Source: a virus (lineage: Duplodnaviria > Heunggongvirae > Uroviricota > Caudoviricetes). Taken from it: a stretch of DNA of 32,021 nt. The stretch lies in IMG/VR virus record IMGVR_UViG_2531839667_000012. One strand, given 5' to 3'. The position numbers were made by a program, and so were the translations under genes. Shown piece by piece: positions 4,839 through 14,721 of the stretch (position 1 is its first letter; each line of letters begins with the position of its first letter). The notes beneath the pieces are model-generated. The model was not told where the DNA came from. It searched no databases and saw only the letters and a list, made by a program, of their open reading frames with translations.

Positions 4839-5045
4839 CTAACGCTTTTCGTTAACGGACTGACGAAATAGTGTGATGCCGTTCAAAAAAATGATTCTTG
4901 CCATGCTGGACATCGAACGGTTCTGATCCAGCGCTAATGCTTCCAGTTCCGCGATTTCAGCGGGGAGCAGGCGCATTGCCACCGGTTTGTTCGACATCAC
5001 CCCGCGAGGTGCTCGTGAGCGTAAGACGTTCTCATTTGTTTTCAT
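4839..5045 (-). CDS. Small ribbon-helix-helix (CopG/Arc-like) regulator, first gene of the leftward operon (Cox/Apl-position analogue)
   Basis: 68 aa ORF; KPVAMRLLPAEIAELEALALDQNRSMSSMARIIF fits an RHH beta-strand plus two helices; divergent from the XRE gene; start may be the internal ATG at 4997. Confidence 0.55.
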   Translation of the reverse strand: MKTNENVLRSRAPRGVMSNKPVAMRLLPAEIAELEALALDQNRSMSSMARIIFLNGITLFRQSVNEKR

Positions 5046-5054
5046 GGTGGTATA

Positions 5055-5077
5055 TTGTGGTTATTAACATTACACAA
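5055..5077. promoter_or_regulatory. Inverted repeat TTGTG-N13-CACAA in the 55-bp divergent intergenic region; candidate operator of the switch
   Basis: Sequence ttgtggttattaacattacacaa lies between the divergent RHH (minus) and XRE (plus) genes. Confidence 0.35.
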
Positions 5078-5100
5078 AGCGTATAGGAAAAATATTCCCT

Positions 5101-5466
5101 ATGTCAACCGAGAAACAGGAAATATTTTACATTATTGGGGCTAGGTTGCGAGAAGAACGTGAGCGACTTGAGAAGAGCCAGAAATTTATGGCTGAGGCAC
5201 TTGGGGCGGATATCAAAACATGGAACAACTATGAGCGGGGGGCATCGGTGCCTGATGCTCATAAATTAACCATTATAGCGGCAGTGGGTGTAGACGTTCT
5301 GTATGTTCTGACTGGCAACCGCACGCCTGTAGTTACGTTGTCCAGTAAAGAGAGTGTGTTGGTCGAAAATTACCGTTCTGCTACGCCAGAACACCAGTCC
5401 ACCCTTGACACGGTTAGCGCTGCGCTTGCGCAACCGGGTGTAGGGAAGAAAGCTGGAGGGGCGTAA
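5101..5466 (+). CDS. XRE-family helix-turn-helix regulator (candidate immunity repressor / operon regulator)
   Basis: 121 aa; N-terminal IGARLREERERLEKSQKFMAEALGADIKTWNNYERG is an HTH_XRE/Cro-C1 pattern; AGGAAA upstream; stops 5 bp before the next gene. Confidence 0.8.
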   Translation: MSTEKQEIFYIIGARLREERERLEKSQKFMAEALGADIKTWNNYERGASVPDAHKLTIIAAVGVDVLYVLTGNRTPVVTLSSKESVLVENYRSATPEHQSTLDTVSAALAQPGVGKKAGGA

Positions 5467-5470
5467 TTTT

Positions 5471-5905
5471 ATGTTTAATACAGTATCTCTTATTATTGTT
5501 GTGATTTTGCTATGTGCTGTCGTTTCAGCTCTTATTACTCAGAAGAGAGAAAAGAAAAAAGGGAGCGTAGATAAAGTTAGTGATGAAATTTTACGTATCA
5601 GGTCTCTTGGGAAAAAACAACCGCTTTATTATTCTAACGCAACCACAAGATATGAAGAAATACCGCCGTCTGTTCAAAAAAATAGAAAAATTAATATACT
5701 GAAAATAGGAAAAGTAAAATATATCGCTTTCAGTTACATAGATAGTAAAGGTGATTTTACTCACCGTGAGGTGGATGTTTCATCTATAGATAATGAATAT
5801 TTACAAGGGTATTGCCACTTAGCTAAAGAGTATAGAACATTTCGCCTTGATAGGATTCAGGGGGATGTTATTTGTAGAGATACAGGGGAAGTTATTTTAA
5901 ATTAA
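5471..5905 (+). CDS. Membrane-anchored WYL-domain protein (N-terminal TM helix, C-terminal WYL-like ligand-binding domain)
   Basis: 144 aa; hydrophobic N-terminus VSLIIVVILLCAVVSALI followed by KREKKK; C-terminal YIAFSYIDSKGDFTHREVDVSSIDNEYLQGYCHLAKEYRTFRLDRIQ resembles the WYL signature; strongly AT-rich. Confidence 0.6.
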   Translation: MFNTVSLIIVVILLCAVVSALITQKREKKKGSVDKVSDEILRIRSLGKKQPLYYSNATTRYEEIPPSVQKNRKINILKIGKVKYIAFSYIDSKGDFTHREVDVSSIDNEYLQGYCHLAKEYRTFRLDRIQGDVICRDTGEVILN

Positions 5906-5929
5906 CGATAAATATTAAGTGAGGATGTT

Positions 5930-6331
5930 TTGAATACATATAATTTATTTATTAGTCATTCATGGAAATATAATGATACATATGAATCATTGGTACGTCT
6001 TTTAAAAGGAAGAGGATATTTTGATTTTAAAAATTACTCAGTACCAAGAATAGATCCTATCATTGGTGCTAATAGCCATTCAGCTTTATATTCAGCAATT
6101 CAAAATCAGATGCGACCGTCTCAGGTAGTTTTGATTTTAGCCGGTGTATATGCATCATATAGTACTTGGATTGATGCAGAAATAAGGATAGCCAAGGATT
6201 GGAAAAAGCCAATTATCGCTATTGAACCTTGGGGATCTGAGAGGACATCCAAGGTAGTAAAAGATGCAGCGAACAGAATTGTAAAATGGAACTCAGATAG
6301 TATTGTTAAAGCAATTAGAGAGTTGGCATAA
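5930..6331 (+). CDS. Minimal TIR-like domain protein (predicted NAD+-processing signal generator)
   Basis: 133 aa; begins LFISHSWKY (TIR betaA-like) and contains YASYSTWIDAEI, resembling the TIR SxWxxxE catalytic-glutamate motif; TTG start with GAGGA upstream; AT-rich. Confidence 0.6.
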   Translation: MNTYNLFISHSWKYNDTYESLVRLLKGRGYFDFKNYSVPRIDPIIGANSHSALYSAIQNQMRPSQVVLILAGVYASYSTWIDAEIRIAKDWKKPIIAIEPWGSERTSKVVKDAANRIVKWNSDSIVKAIRELA

Positions 6332-6341
6332 GGATTAACTG

Positions 6342-7307
6342 ATGAGAAAGGCTCTGTTTGTTGGGATTAATGAATATGCGGAAATTTCTCATCTTGCGGG
6401 ATGTGAAAATGATGCTATGAAGATGTCTGCGGCATTGTCCAGACATGCGGATGGGCGTCCTAATTTTGAAGGGAAAGATTTGATTCACCGTGAGCAGATG
6501 CCTGTAACTAAGGTATTGCTTGAGCAAGAAATTCAGACTTTATTCAGTGGTTCAGCAGATATAGCTTTATTATTCTTTGCTGGGCATGGGTATTTTGATG
6601 AAAATATAGATGAAGGGGTTATCATTCCTCATGATTACTCTTCTCATCAAAGCAATGGTGTGAGAATCAGTGATATCATGCTATGGGCATCGAGAGCAAC
6701 CAATATTAAAAATAAAATAATAATACTAGATTGCTGTCAGGCGGGCGCTGCCGGACAAGTCAGGAACTTAAGAGGTGGAGACTCCATTCTTGCTGATGGC
6801 ACAACAATATTAACCGCATGTCAGCGTGATGAATATGCGCAAGAGCAGGATGGTCAGGGTATTTTTACAGCCTTAATGTTGGAGGCTTTATATGGCGCAG
6901 GTGCTAATATATTGGGGCATGTAACACCCGGTAGTTTGTATAGCTTTGTTGACCAAGCATTAGGTGCATGGGAGCAGCGACCGGTATTTAAAACAAATGT
7001 ATCCAGATTCGTAGTGCTAAGAGAAGTCGGGCCAAGAATCCCGTTAGAAACATTAAGGCAATTACCTGATTGGTTTGCTAGTGGTAGTGCTGAATATCCT
7101 CTTGATCCTAGTTACGAGCCTGATTCAGGAGCACCAAATGAGGATAATGTAAGGATATTTCGGCAATTACAAGCCTGTAATCGTCATGGCCTTGTTGAAC
7201 CTGTTAACGCAGAACATATGTATTATGCAGCGATGAATTCAACTGCATGTAGATTGACCGCTTTGGGAGCCTATTATAGAAAACTGGCAGAGAAAAGGCG
7301 TTTTTGA
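6342..7307 (+). CDS. Caspase-like protease (peptidase C14 / metacaspase-like His-Cys dyad) with C-terminal domain of unknown function
   Basis: 321 aa; KALFVGINEY start, FFAGHGYF (His-Gly) and IILDCCQAGAAG (catalytic Cys) in caspase order and spacing; AAGGA SD 7 nt upstream; AT-rich. Confidence 0.8.
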   Translation: MRKALFVGINEYAEISHLAGCENDAMKMSAALSRHADGRPNFEGKDLIHREQMPVTKVLLEQEIQTLFSGSADIALLFFAGHGYFDENIDEGVIIPHDYSSHQSNGVRISDIMLWASRATNIKNKIIILDCCQAGAAGQVRNLRGGDSILADGTTILTACQRDEYAQEQDGQGIFTALMLEALYGAGANILGHVTPGSLYSFVDQALGAWEQRPVFKTNVSRFVVLREVGPRIPLETLRQLPDWFASGSAEYPLDPSYEPDSGAPNEDNVRIFRQLQACNRHGLVEPVNAEHMYYAAMNSTACRLTALGAYYRKLAEKRRF

Positions 7308-7332
7308 TTAATCGGGTGTACGGGGGTTGGTT

Positions 7333-12678: not shown

Positions 12679-13857
12679 TTACACGGTGGTGGCGATGGAT
12701 TCAGCCAGATTGACCAGATAGCGGTCAGTGATACGCTGGCGGAACATCAGGTTTTCCAGCGGCGGCACCGGGGTGTAGTCGTAGTCGATATACGCTTTAC
12801 CCGCTTTCAGGATGTCCGGCGTGTTGGCGGCGGGATCGAACCATGCGGAACCATCGACGATGTAGCCGTTGCCTTTCAGTTCGCGGAATTTGGCGTTCAC
12901 GCCTTCGATAATGTCGCGGAACAGAGAAGCGTGTTGCGGTTTATCTACCGCCCAGAAGTGGGCGTCGGCGATGGTATCCGCCAGCACCTGCGCGGTGCGG
13001 GTGTAGTTCTCAAAGGCAAACAGCGGATCGGTGCTGCAGGTGCGCGATCCCCAGAAGCGATAGCCGCCGTTGCAAATCAGCGTGGTGACGTCGTGGCTGT
13101 TGAGGTAATCGGAGTCGGTGGCGGTGGACTGGAGATCCCAGAATACGCTGCGGGAAATGCCGGTCACGCCGTTGACGTCAACGTTGGACAGCGTTTTATG
13201 CCAGCCGATTTCTTCATCAATTTTTGCACGCAGGCCCACGGCGCGGGCGGTGGCGTATAGGGTGCGTTCGGCAGCAGCCTGCGTATCAAAGCCGACAAAA
13301 TCCGGCCAGATAATCATCGCCTCCCGCGCACCGAGCTGATCGCGATACAGCACTGCCTCTTCTTTGGTCTGCGCGCCGAACGCCGACAGATAGCTGAAGG
13401 CGCGAAGCTGTTGTGAAATGCTGACCAGTTCGGTGGCGACGGGCAGAGAATCCAGCCCCGGTACCGCCAGAATGCGCGGTTTTATTTTCAGTTTGGTTTG
13501 CGAGTCCAGCAGTGCCTTCATGCCGGTGTATTTCCCGGCTGGCGTGCTGCCGCCGATGATATTGGCGGTGGTTTCGGCAGCGGAGTCACCTTCGGCTACG
13601 CGCACGGCGACCACCACCGGCTGCGTCTGGTCGGCGATGGCATCCAGAGAGTGCGCCAGCGTACCGCTATCACCGGCTTTACCCAGCGCAGATCGCACGT
13701 CGGTTAACAGTACCGGGGTATCAAGGGGAAAGGTTTTTTCATCGGCGTCTGATCCGGTGCAGACGATGCCGATCACGGCGGTGGAGATGGTACGGATCGG
13801 GCGTACGCCTTCATTGATTTCAATAACGCGCGCGCCGTGGTGGTAGTCGGTTGCCAT
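12679..13857 (-). CDS. FI: Contractile tail sheath protein (P2 gpFI-like)
   Basis: Start chosen at ATG 13857 (MATDYHHG...) with GGAGG 9 nt upstream; 393 aa. Confidence 0.9.
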   Translation of the reverse strand: MATDYHHGARVIEINEGVRPIRTISTAVIGIVCTGSDADEKTFPLDTPVLLTDVRSALGKAGDSGTLAHSLDAIADQTQPVVVAVRVAEGDSAAETTANIIGGSTPAGKYTGMKALLDSQTKLKIKPRILAVPGLDSLPVATELVSISQQLRAFSYLSAFGAQTKEEAVLYRDQLGAREAMIIWPDFVGFDTQAAAERTLYATARAVGLRAKIDEEIGWHKTLSNVDVNGVTGISRSVFWDLQSTATDSDYLNSHDVTTLICNGGYRFWGSRTCSTDPLFAFENYTRTAQVLADTIADAHFWAVDKPQHASLFRDIIEGVNAKFRELKGNGYIVDGSAWFDPAANTPDILKAGKAYIDYDYTPVPPLENLMFRQRITDRYLVNLAESIATTV

Positions 13858-13927
13858 AGGGCTGGCCTCCATCAGGTCAATAAATGACGATGGTGGCACA
13901 GAGCGAAAAGGGCGGTGACGGCTTCCA

Positions 13928-13950
13928 CTTGTAACCACTGGCACTACAAG
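13928..13950 (-). promoter_or_regulatory. Ogr-box dyad (CTTGTA-N11-TACAAG) of the late promoter for the FI operon
   Basis: cttgtaaccactggcactacaag about 80 bp upstream of the FI start; same 23-bp pattern occurs at three other late-operon heads. Confidence 0.6.
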
Positions 13951-13962
13951 CAGAAGCGGTTT

Positions 13963-14721
13963 TTAATTCAGGATAATCAATTCTGATGTGGCGCTGGCTG
14001 GCTTTCCACCTACGGTATAGCGAATCCCTACCGTTGAGAATGTCAGGCCGTGGAAGATATCGCGCATTTCCGGGATGTCGTTAACCGAGATAATCATCCG
14101 GCCCTGCATGGTGCGCGCCAGCTCTGCCATACGCTGGTACTGCTCAAGGCCAAATGGTACGCCGTAGCCTTCGGTTTTCCAGTATGGAGGGTCGCAGTAG
14201 AACAGGGTATGCGGGCGGTCATAGCGGCGAATACAGTCGGCCCAGTCCAGATTTTCAATGCAGACGCGCGCCAGCCGCAGATGGGCGGCGGATAAATCCT
14301 CTTCCATACGCAGCAGGTTCAGGCGCGGCGGTGAGGTGGTAGCGGTACCGAACGTGCGGCTTTCCACTTTGCCGCCGAATGCCAGCTTTTGCAGATAGTA
14401 GAAGCGCGCCGCGCGCTGGATATCGGTCAGCGTTTCTTCCGGGGTGATCTGGAGCCAGCGGTACATTTCGCGGCTGACCAGCGACCATTTAAACTGGCGG
14501 ACAAACTCTTCTAAATGGTGCTGAAGTACGCGGTAGAGGTTGGTAACGTCACCGTTGATATCATTCAGCACCTCGGCCTGTGCGGGCTGTTTCATAAAGA
14601 ACAACGCCGCCGCCCCGCAGAACGGTTCAACGTAGCAGCGGTGTTTGGGAAACAGTGGCAGAATGTGTTTTGCCAGCCTGCGCTTACCGCCGATCCACGG
14701 AATAACGGGTAACGTATTCAT
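13963..14721 (-). CDS. dam: DNA adenine N6-methyltransferase, Dam/D12 class
   Basis: 252 aa; motif I EPFCGAAALFF and motif IV FYCDPPYW; located between tail-fibre assembly gene G and FI. Confidence 0.85.
   Translation of the reverse strand: MNTLPVIPWIGGKRRLAKHILPLFPKHRCYVEPFCGAAALFFMKQPAQAEVLNDINGDVTNLYRVLQHHLEEFVRQFKWSLVSREMYRWLQITPEETLTDIQRAARFYYLQKLAFGGKVESRTFGTATTSPPRLNLLRMEEDLSAAHLRLARVCIENLDWADCIRRYDRPHTLFYCDPPYWKTEGYGVPFGLEQYQRMAELARTMQGRMIISVNDIPEMRDIFHGLTFSTVGIRYTVGGKPASATSELIILN

Follow-up and report, generated by a model that had tools for sequence, protein, structure and literature searches.

WYL domains are known as switches that sense single-stranded DNA (ssDNA) on transcription factors of defence and DNA-damage responses, and those of CapW and DriD bind short ssDNA, with the CapW contacts made by S144, R164, R168 and R184 (PMC11662680). 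In these regulators, as in BrxR and PafBC, the WYL barrel is framed by a winged helix-turn-helix (HTH) with linker helices and by a WCX extension. Here we describe a WYL protein of another build, TM-WYL, with a predicted transmembrane (TM) helix in front of the barrel, which is encoded in a P2-like prophage adjoining guaA on a DNA stretch of 32,021 nucleotides (IMG/VR record IMGVR_UViG_2531839667_000012; called the window below). The gene lies behind a repressor-like XRE gene and ahead of a TIR gene and a gene for a caspase-like protease. While the WYL sensor domain as such is known, its membrane-anchored, HTH-less architecture, found in hundreds of sequence clusters, and its niche behind phage repressors are new; in the open-access papers searched, no report on membrane-anchored or prophage WYL proteins or on a function of the TM-WYL phage family was found.

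Two further groups of described systems are close to the locus. The rexAB genes behind cI of phage lambda are precedent exclusion genes that share the transcript of a repressor. The tin, old and fun genes of P2 provide exclusion or abortive-infection precedents, and glo in the immunity-integration region of K139 is an exclusion-gene precedent according to a paper citing the original work (Nesper 1999). Type IV Thoeris, on the other hand, is an abundant two-gene operon in which a TIR protein makes N7-cyclic ADP-ribose (N7-cADPR), which activates a protease; one operon of E. coli and one of Pseudomonas were each sufficient against T6, and a WYL, XRE or transmembrane component is not mentioned in the paper (Rousset et al. 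2025).

A WYL barrel behind a predicted membrane anchor

The gene and its parts are located in the window as follows.

5471..5905, + strand: TM-WYL gene, 144 aa, first cargo gene behind the repressor and accessory gene of the prophage lysogenic operon
5480..5539, + strand: codons of the sole N-terminal TM helix (about residues 4-23; hydropathy maximum 3.05, helix in the structure model)
5543..5560, + strand: basic cluster K25-R-E-K-K-K30 directly behind the TM helix (hydropathy and charge, positive-inside rule)
5717..5899, + strand: WYL (Sm-like beta-barrel) domain, residues 83-143 (Pfam, PADLOC, structure model, Foldseek)

The C-terminal domain is recognized by profile as well as by predicted fold. 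Pfam PF13280 (WYL) matches residues 83-130 (E=1.1e-7, 32.2 bits; gathering threshold 21.8), two WYL-containing PADLOC models match the protein at ~1e-9, and a domain profile reaches PafBC at 1.4e-7 from sequence alone. In the AlphaFold2 (AF2) model, built on 68 homologues with a mean predicted local distance difference test score (pLDDT) of 84, residues 2-47 form a single continuous helix made up of the membrane segment and a charged extension (block-mean pLDDT over residues 1-20 of 91 and 96), residues 48-75 are a low-confidence linker and residues 84-143 fold into a six-stranded barrel with pLDDT >95. When this model was compared with the PDB by Foldseek, ranks 1-15 were all taken by WYL proteins (PafBC, BrxR) with a probability of 1.0, in one case 0.99, followed by Hfq, which has the Sm fold, and by DriD at rank 17; the barrel superimposes on BrxR with a root mean square deviation (rmsd) of 2.5 A over 63-65 columns.

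The protein starts with MFNTVSLIIVVILLCAVVSALITQKREKKK and is composed of the N-terminal TM helix, the KREKKK cluster, a disordered linker and the WYL beta-barrel. In 19-residue windows, the Kyte-Doolittle hydropathy has its maximum of 3.05 at residues 4-22 and falls steeply at K25-K30. By the positive-inside rule, with an uncharged N-terminus and a basic cluster after the helix, the barrel is predicted to be cytoplasmic; across the family, the net charge is +1.5 on average after the last TM helix and ~0 before the helix of single-TM members. A signal peptide or lipoprotein was considered for the N-terminus and rejected, as the n-region is uncharged and the hydrophobic core 19 residues long, while 'LLC' is no lipobox and the basic cluster is on the C-terminal side. 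The sequence-only reading of this DNA, which had seen a WYL domain behind a single N-terminal TM helix and a poly-lysine stop-transfer, is thus borne out on both counts, by the profile match above threshold and the predicted fold for the domain and by hydropathy, the K25-K30 cluster and the AF2 helix for the anchor.

Compared with the regulators BrxR, CapW, PafBC and DriD, the WYL barrel is homologous, but winged HTH, linker helices and WCX are all missing and a TM helix takes the place of the DNA-binding domain. A Pfam scan of TM-WYL detected no HTH, residues 1-47 consisting of one TM segment plus the charged helix, and no WCX extension was found, as the protein ends at residue 144 directly behind the last barrel strand. 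TM-WYL alone cannot be a DNA-bound repressor, in agreement with the earlier proposal that it is no classical WYL repressor; a sensor tethered to the membrane is the probable alternative. The canonical WYL triplet reads E-Y-L in TM-WYL. At least 90% conserved across the family are F87, Y89, R99, V101, C115, R122, T123, F124, R128, G139 and E140, with only R99 and F124 strictly invariant. By profile alignment and the residue spacing given in PMC11662680, the family-conserved R128 is the counterpart of CapW R184 (R200 of E. coli CapW) and S88 that of CapW S144, while R99 and R122 are conserved arginines of the family's own.

WYL barrels without HTH are also present in stand-alone WYL proteins, such as the Cas13d accessory WYL1 and phage WYL-only proteins, which differ from TM-WYL in being soluble, without membrane anchor and in another genomic setting. 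Among the viral structures of the BFVD library, phage WYL-only proteins are the best match of the TM-WYL barrel (E=1.4e-5, rmsd 1.2 A, 37% identity). Lytic Xanthomonas and Stenotrophomonas phages encode such proteins of ~69-79 aa (A0A868BZ36, A0A5P8PM79; H8-H11 Stenotrophomonas; P0274), which might be decoys for WYL ligands. Two PDB chains of ~510 aa labelled 'AAA ATPase' (8bnv_A and 8bns_A) match the motif G-F-C-x(5)-R-x-F-R-I-D-R-I at their C-terminus, so that the WYL barrel is also found fused to an AAA ATPase.

The family behind phage repressors

An exhaustive phmmer (HMMER) search against 1.84 billion representative proteins retrieved 538 homologues of TM-WYL at E<=1e-3, of which 46 reach E<=1e-10, and 131 of the 150 best homologues carry one to three N-terminal hydrophobic helices before the C-terminal domain. 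The domain follows the motif F-x-Y-x-D-x-x-G-x(3)-R-x-V-x-V ... Y-x-x-G-Y-C-H-x(5)-R-T-F-R-x-D-R-I ... T-G-E, and the family corresponds to phrog_6785 of PHROGs (unknown function). Viral contigs of IMG/VR were scanned with the back-translated family motif, which gave 32 loci, most of them on contigs of 30-36 kb, and 30 of the 30 recoverable open reading frames (ORFs) encode TM-WYL proteins. As the combination of TM segment and WYL domain recurs in these ORFs and in the great majority of the best homologues, the ORF in the window is not a chance one.

On the viral contigs, a small cox/apl-like gene on the opposite strand is followed on the same strand by a repressor gene, the TM-WYL gene and a gene of ~335-360 aa. 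Among the distinct upstream proteins, 186-type CI (Phage_CI_repr plus Phage_CI_C) accounts for 21/28 and S24-peptidase repressors for 5/28, the remainder being other HTH proteins and none (0/28) a TIR protein; the distinct downstream proteins are integrases in 14/18 cases and a TIR in 1/18, namely the window's own copy. TM-WYL genes thus have a stereotyped place directly behind phage repressors, which in P2/186-like phages is typically the gap from cI to int. The same order of repressor, TM-WYL and integrase is present in an Entomohabitans genome and in Yersinia phage vB_YenM_201.16, where the TM-WYL gene is annotated 'hypothetical protein', and the repressor-TM-WYL layout recurs in the loci L126, L127, L165 and L173. 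In metagenomic prophages, the order S24 repressor, TM-WYL with an added BRCT domain, 129-aa gene and gpD places the gene in the same slot as in the window, while in two further phage fragments an HTH repressor gene overlaps the TM-WYL start by 4 bp. As cI-int constitutes the lysogenic (pL) operon according to the annotation of phage 186, a gene placed between the two is expressed in the lysogen.

The presence of the gene varies among closely related phages. The cI proteins of the Yersinia phages 201.16 and 56.17 are 98% identical, but TM-WYL is located between cI and int only in 201.16, whereas cI abuts int in 56.17. Likewise, cI abuts int in Klebsiella phage Kp4882-2, the cI of which is 92% identical to that of the TM-WYL-encoding viral locus L093, and in phage 186 itself, and the window shares its backbone with two prophages that do not possess the gene (L001 and L002). 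Since phages with 98% identical cI occur with and without TM-WYL, the gene is accessory to the lysogenic operon.

The features that connect TM-WYL with its upstream neighbour in the window are the following.

4839..5045, - strand: Arc-like ribbon-helix-helix gene in the cox/cro position (weak RHH_5 match; phrog_3431 Arc-like repressor, 1.4e-23)
5064..5093, + strand: promoter-like site, candidate lysogenic promoter of XRE, TM-WYL, TIR and caspase genes (consensus match only)
5101..5466, + strand: XRE/HTH_31 protein, 121 aa, backbone repressor-like gene (Pfam, relatives, PHROGs)
5440..5470, no strand: left backbone/cargo boundary, where homology to cargo-swapped relatives ends and the guanine plus cytosine (GC) content drops from 50% to 32%
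5456..5462, + strand: Shine-Dalgarno GGAGGGG of TM-WYL inside the XRE 3' end (sequence)

The XRE gene is transcribed divergently from the Arc-like gene, beyond which ogr and then the primase gene are located, as is C with respect to cox in P2. The TM-WYL ORF starts with ATG after a gap of 4 nt to the XRE stop codon, and its GGAGG Shine-Dalgarno sequence is found 9 nt 5' of the ATG within the XRE 3' end. With this ribosome binding site embedded in XRE, co-transcription of TM-WYL with XRE is indicated and translational coupling is probable; no convincing terminator was found between the two genes. By position and homology, XRE appears to be the prophage repressor. Compared with its E. coli relatives, the C-terminal halves are ~100% and the HTH halves ~40% identical at the protein level, a mosaic pattern expected of an immunity repressor. 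When 5,426 complete E. coli genomes were searched with the locus, matches were confined to the conserved XRE 3' half.

The sequence-only reading had interpreted the protein as a WYL domain split from its HTH, with XRE as the missing half. This interpretation is not supported, since XRE possesses a Cro/C1-type HTH and not the winged HTH of BrxR and CapW, is part of the prophage backbone that is kept in relatives with wholly different cargo, and has exchanged its HTH half while keeping the C-terminal one. At the DNA level, the window and these relatives are homologous across the XRE 3' half up to ~25 nt before the XRE stop codon. XRE has a GC content of 50%, TM-WYL of 32%, the TIR gene of 33%, the caspase gene of 42% and gpD of 59%, and the compositional break falls exactly on the XRE/TM-WYL junction.

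A functional partnership with the repressor could nevertheless be envisaged, in which TM-WYL as a membrane-tethered DNA-damage or ssDNA sensor would sequester or release the adjacent repressor to tune induction or immunity. TM-WYL is nearly always located directly behind the repressor gene, often with translational coupling through a stop/start overlap, and the WYL domains of PafBC, DriD and CapW are ssDNA or DNA-damage sensors that control an HTH. In addition, CI of the 186 type has no self-cleaving S24 domain and so needs an external inducer. We consider such a partnership unlikely, though, as at least three unrelated repressor architectures (186-type CI, S24/LexA-like, short XRE) argue against a specific protein contact, phages with nearly the same cI (98% and 92% identity) lack TM-WYL, phage 186 runs its switch without it, and operon position alone accounts for the adjacency. 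In the window itself, XRE is backbone and TM-WYL cargo of other composition. Diverse repressors, the same repressor with and without the gene and this backbone-cargo division argue for co-expression as the reason for the constant adjacency, rather than a specific complex of repressor and WYL protein.

In a sub-group of the family of 230-377 aa (phrog_2561), a BRCT domain follows the WYL barrel; the phrog_2561 label 'DNA ligase' is apparently due only to this BRCT domain. Members are encoded at the following loci.

L098, 7563-8264: TM-WYL-BRCT gene
L112, L115, L122, L124, L165 and L173: loci with further TM-WYL-BRCT genes
P0140: TM-WYL-BRCT protein

A long C-terminal extension containing a zinc ribbon is present in one family member. 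In a metagenomic relative (L159 3512-3937) the layout is reversed, with the WYL barrel first and a single C-terminal hydrophobic helix as tail anchor. A common 179-aa TM-WYL type was searched for in E. coli and is absent. A word-indexed homologue search with the full TM-WYL protein retrieved only the protein itself, and with the trimmed domain profile 5 short proteins. The pattern RTFRLDRI[QED] detected in genome contigs nearly exclusively canonical HTH-WYL regulators of ~320 aa, with L012 as the sole TM-type locus. GYCH-x5-RTFR[LIV]DRI was rejected as a subfamily-specific signature, as it also matches canonical regulators with W-Y-x-x-G-Y-C-H; as a DNA pattern, it gave ~6/80 loci of the TM type in metagenomes, compared with all of the viral-contig ORFs.

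Candidate role in the lysogen

The explanation that we favour, although we see the balance for and against it as even, is that TM-WYL belongs to the lysogenic operon as an independent accessory gene and that its membrane-anchored WYL product protects the lysogen against other phages. The most likely role would be that of a lysogen-expressed exclusion or abortive-infection protein sensing nucleic acid at the membrane, as repressor-co-transcribed genes that vary among related phages classically have such functions. Transcribed with the XRE repressor, the protein would be made in the lysogen, where one N-terminal helix would anchor it in the inner membrane with the WYL barrel on the cytoplasmic side at the end of a flexible linker of ~30 residues. 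There the barrel would bind a nucleic-acid ligand at the inner membrane face, for example ssDNA of an entering or replicating phage genome. Binding could either block the establishment of the incoming genome, amounting to superinfection exclusion, or could cause the membrane helices to oligomerise, leading to abortive infection by a one-protein analogue of lambda RexA/RexB. The ssDNA binding of the CapW and DriD WYL domains and the conservation of R128 are in favour of a nucleic-acid ligand, and the variants that carry a BRCT domain suggest that it is DNA.

The likeness to lambda rexA/rexB, K139 glo and P2 tin/old/fun is one of operon logic, with expression in the lysogen from the repressor transcript and variable presence among similar phages, and RexB is membrane-associated as well. 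However, sequence or fold kinship is absent and TM-WYL unites anchor and putative sensor in one protein. In the combination of a small cytoplasmic ligand-binding domain with membrane helices, TM-WYL resembles the CARF-TM protein Cam1, Cap15 and the Macro-TM effector of type II Thoeris. Those effectors are genetically linked to a signal-producing enzyme (TIR, CD-NTase or Cas10), whereas TM-WYL genes are found next to phage repressor and integrase genes, and the TM segment of TM-WYL is N-terminal and can be a single helix.

In a bolder version, put forward tentatively and with the expectation that it may well fail, TM-WYL is a widespread single-gene immunity of temperate phages, a 'one-protein Rex', in which the WYL barrel would recognise ssDNA of a rival at the inner membrane and then trap the genome or collapse the membrane potential. 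Candidate ligands would be the single-stranded cohesive ends that P2-like or lambdoid genomes carry. If true, this would be the first WYL domain that acts as a direct membrane-bound effector, as all characterised ones are allosteric switches of transcription factors. With its position behind the immunity repressor in the lysogen transcript, TM-WYL provides a concrete and easily testable candidate mechanism of exclusion or abortive infection.

Several points weigh against a nucleic-acid-sensing exclusion protein. The arginines of the CapW RWHVR motif, R164 and R168, are replaced by N108 and Q112 in TM-WYL, and together with the lack of a WCX this means that the ligand may be other than ssDNA. 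No phenotype of a family member was found in the open-access papers searched, and the topology is predicted from hydropathy and charge only. The tight coupling to the repressor including 4-bp overlaps could reflect a regulatory partnership beyond co-expression. The genomic contexts come mostly from one viral-contig collection and one motif, with non-phage contexts under-sampled, and the metagenome scan returned mostly canonical HTH-WYL regulators.

Expression in the lysogen is also compatible with a function other than defence, be it lysogenic conversion, host physiology, exit or entry of prophage DNA, or integration and excision. Some lysogen-expressed accessory genes of this kind are non-defensive, the placement between cI and int would suit such a role, and the BRCT variants hint at contact with DNA ends or repair proteins. 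We regard the absence of an anti-phage role as rather improbable, since the pattern of presence and absence fits competition between phages better, the hotspot of the window's prophage family otherwise holds defence-like cargo, and WYL domains are strongly tied to defence, as seen in the PADLOC matches.

The TIR-caspase pair and the cargo hotspot

Downstream of TM-WYL, the cargo region continues up to gpD with the following features.

5930..6331, + strand: ThsB-type TIR, 133 aa, TTG start, signal-producing half of type IV Thoeris (PF08937, 2.4e-16)
6342..7307, + strand: caspase-like protease, 321 aa, type IV Thoeris effector (PF00656, 1.1e-14)
7308..7332, no strand: right cargo boundary, where backbone homology resumes at the gpD 3' end

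The TIR and caspase genes at 5930-7307 form a genuine type IV Thoeris module, separate from TM-WYL. The caspase has 5,814 homologues at E<=1e-10. Its closest relative, 85% identical, is encoded on a Salmonella island with TIR and caspase genes, and DNA homology between window and island extends from the TIR start codon to a point just past the caspase stop codon. The caspases of Pantoea (72% identical) and of Vibrio and Pseudomonas (~60-63%, about 60% for the Pseudomonas copies) are likewise paired with a TIR gene. In all four contexts a WYL gene was sought and is absent, and TM-WYL is outside the shared module boundaries.

These observations speak against a joint defence system of XRE, WYL, TIR and caspase proteins, as implied by the sequence-only reading. 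A related alternative views TM-WYL as a type IV Thoeris accessory, the WYL domain of which would bind N7-cADPR or a phage cue and which would serve the TIR-caspase pair as a second effector that damages the membrane, as a regulator or as a brake. The gene is adjacent to the TIR gene on the same strand, apparently in one operon with short gaps, and is as AT-rich as the latter (32% versus 33% GC). Effectors that combine TM segments with a sensor are common in Thoeris, CBASS and CRISPR signalling, and the E. coli two-gene operon is slightly toxic when expressed alone (Rousset et al. 2025). Nevertheless, an accessory role is very unlikely, as the TIR gene is a singular downstream neighbour of TM-WYL genes, the four other type IV Thoeris contexts have no WYL gene, the homology shared by TIR-caspase modules starts at the TIR start codon, the closest TM-WYL homologue is paired with DUF3644 and TIR plus caspase alone give defence (Rousset et al. 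2025). The annotation of the locus is thus corrected, the cargo being composed of two independent modules: an ordinary two-gene type IV Thoeris and, stacked with it, an accessory gene to which it is unrelated.

That closest homologue, P0122, is 55% identical to TM-WYL over its full length, and its contig has the same prophage backbone and the same XRE/TM-WYL junction, with a DUF3644 gene and no TIR gene behind it. On this contig (L092), the XRE gene carries a TGG-to-TGA stop at ~1480-1500 and the primase gene is broken (region 26-756), while the TM-WYL ORF is intact; either the prophage is decaying or the contig is poorly assembled.

The window's prophage comprises on one side a P4-type integrase, an AlpA-like gene, DUF7673, an 884-aa Toprim primase, Ogr and the Arc-like gene, and on the other side gpD, gpU, the tape measure gene and the remainder of the P2-type virion module. 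Two complete E. coli genomes share this backbone with XRE in the same place but differ in the contents between XRE and gpD, with DUF6037, a nucleoid-associated protein and a hypothetical protein in one and a nucleoid-associated protein and a GTP pyrophosphokinase in the other. The XRE-gpD hotspot (window 5440-7332; L001 6190-9230; L002 6190-8300) thus has at least four alternative contents when TM-WYL with TIR and caspase and TM-WYL with DUF3644 are included. It does not appear to correspond to the hotspots Z/fun and tin/old that are reportedly present in P2, and is a useful place to seek further systems.

Variations were observed among the TIR-caspase loci. The TIR start codon is TTG in the window (5930-5932) and ATG in the 85%-related Salmonella module (L006 4590-4592), and the TTG start may reduce expression of the TIR gene in the prophage. 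In Vibrio and Pseudomonas, the caspase gene is followed by a third gene, a second TIR (TIR_2, 159-161 aa), the start of which takes the last base of the caspase stop codon and which is not present in the E. coli, Salmonella and Pantoea loci.

L252, 3960-4439: second TIR gene
L253 and L254, 3960-4445: second TIR genes
L255, 2628-3113: second TIR gene

In Pantoea (L009 3251-4593 and 5984-6415), three genes without Pfam match flank the TIR-caspase pair, two upstream of 183 and 262 aa, with a 4-bp overlap between the latter and the TIR start, and one downstream of 143 aa; the three may be lineage-specific type IV Thoeris accessories. The 143-aa gene behind the caspase was considered as the 143-aa homologue P0122, but its translation is unrelated. 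Elsewhere in the window, a 252-aa ORF at 13963-14721 on the - strand contains the DPPY-type motif FYCDPPYW, typical of N6-adenine DNA methyltransferases; it adjoins a large tail-region ORF (12679-13944) and is a possible anti-restriction or epigenetic accessory gene.

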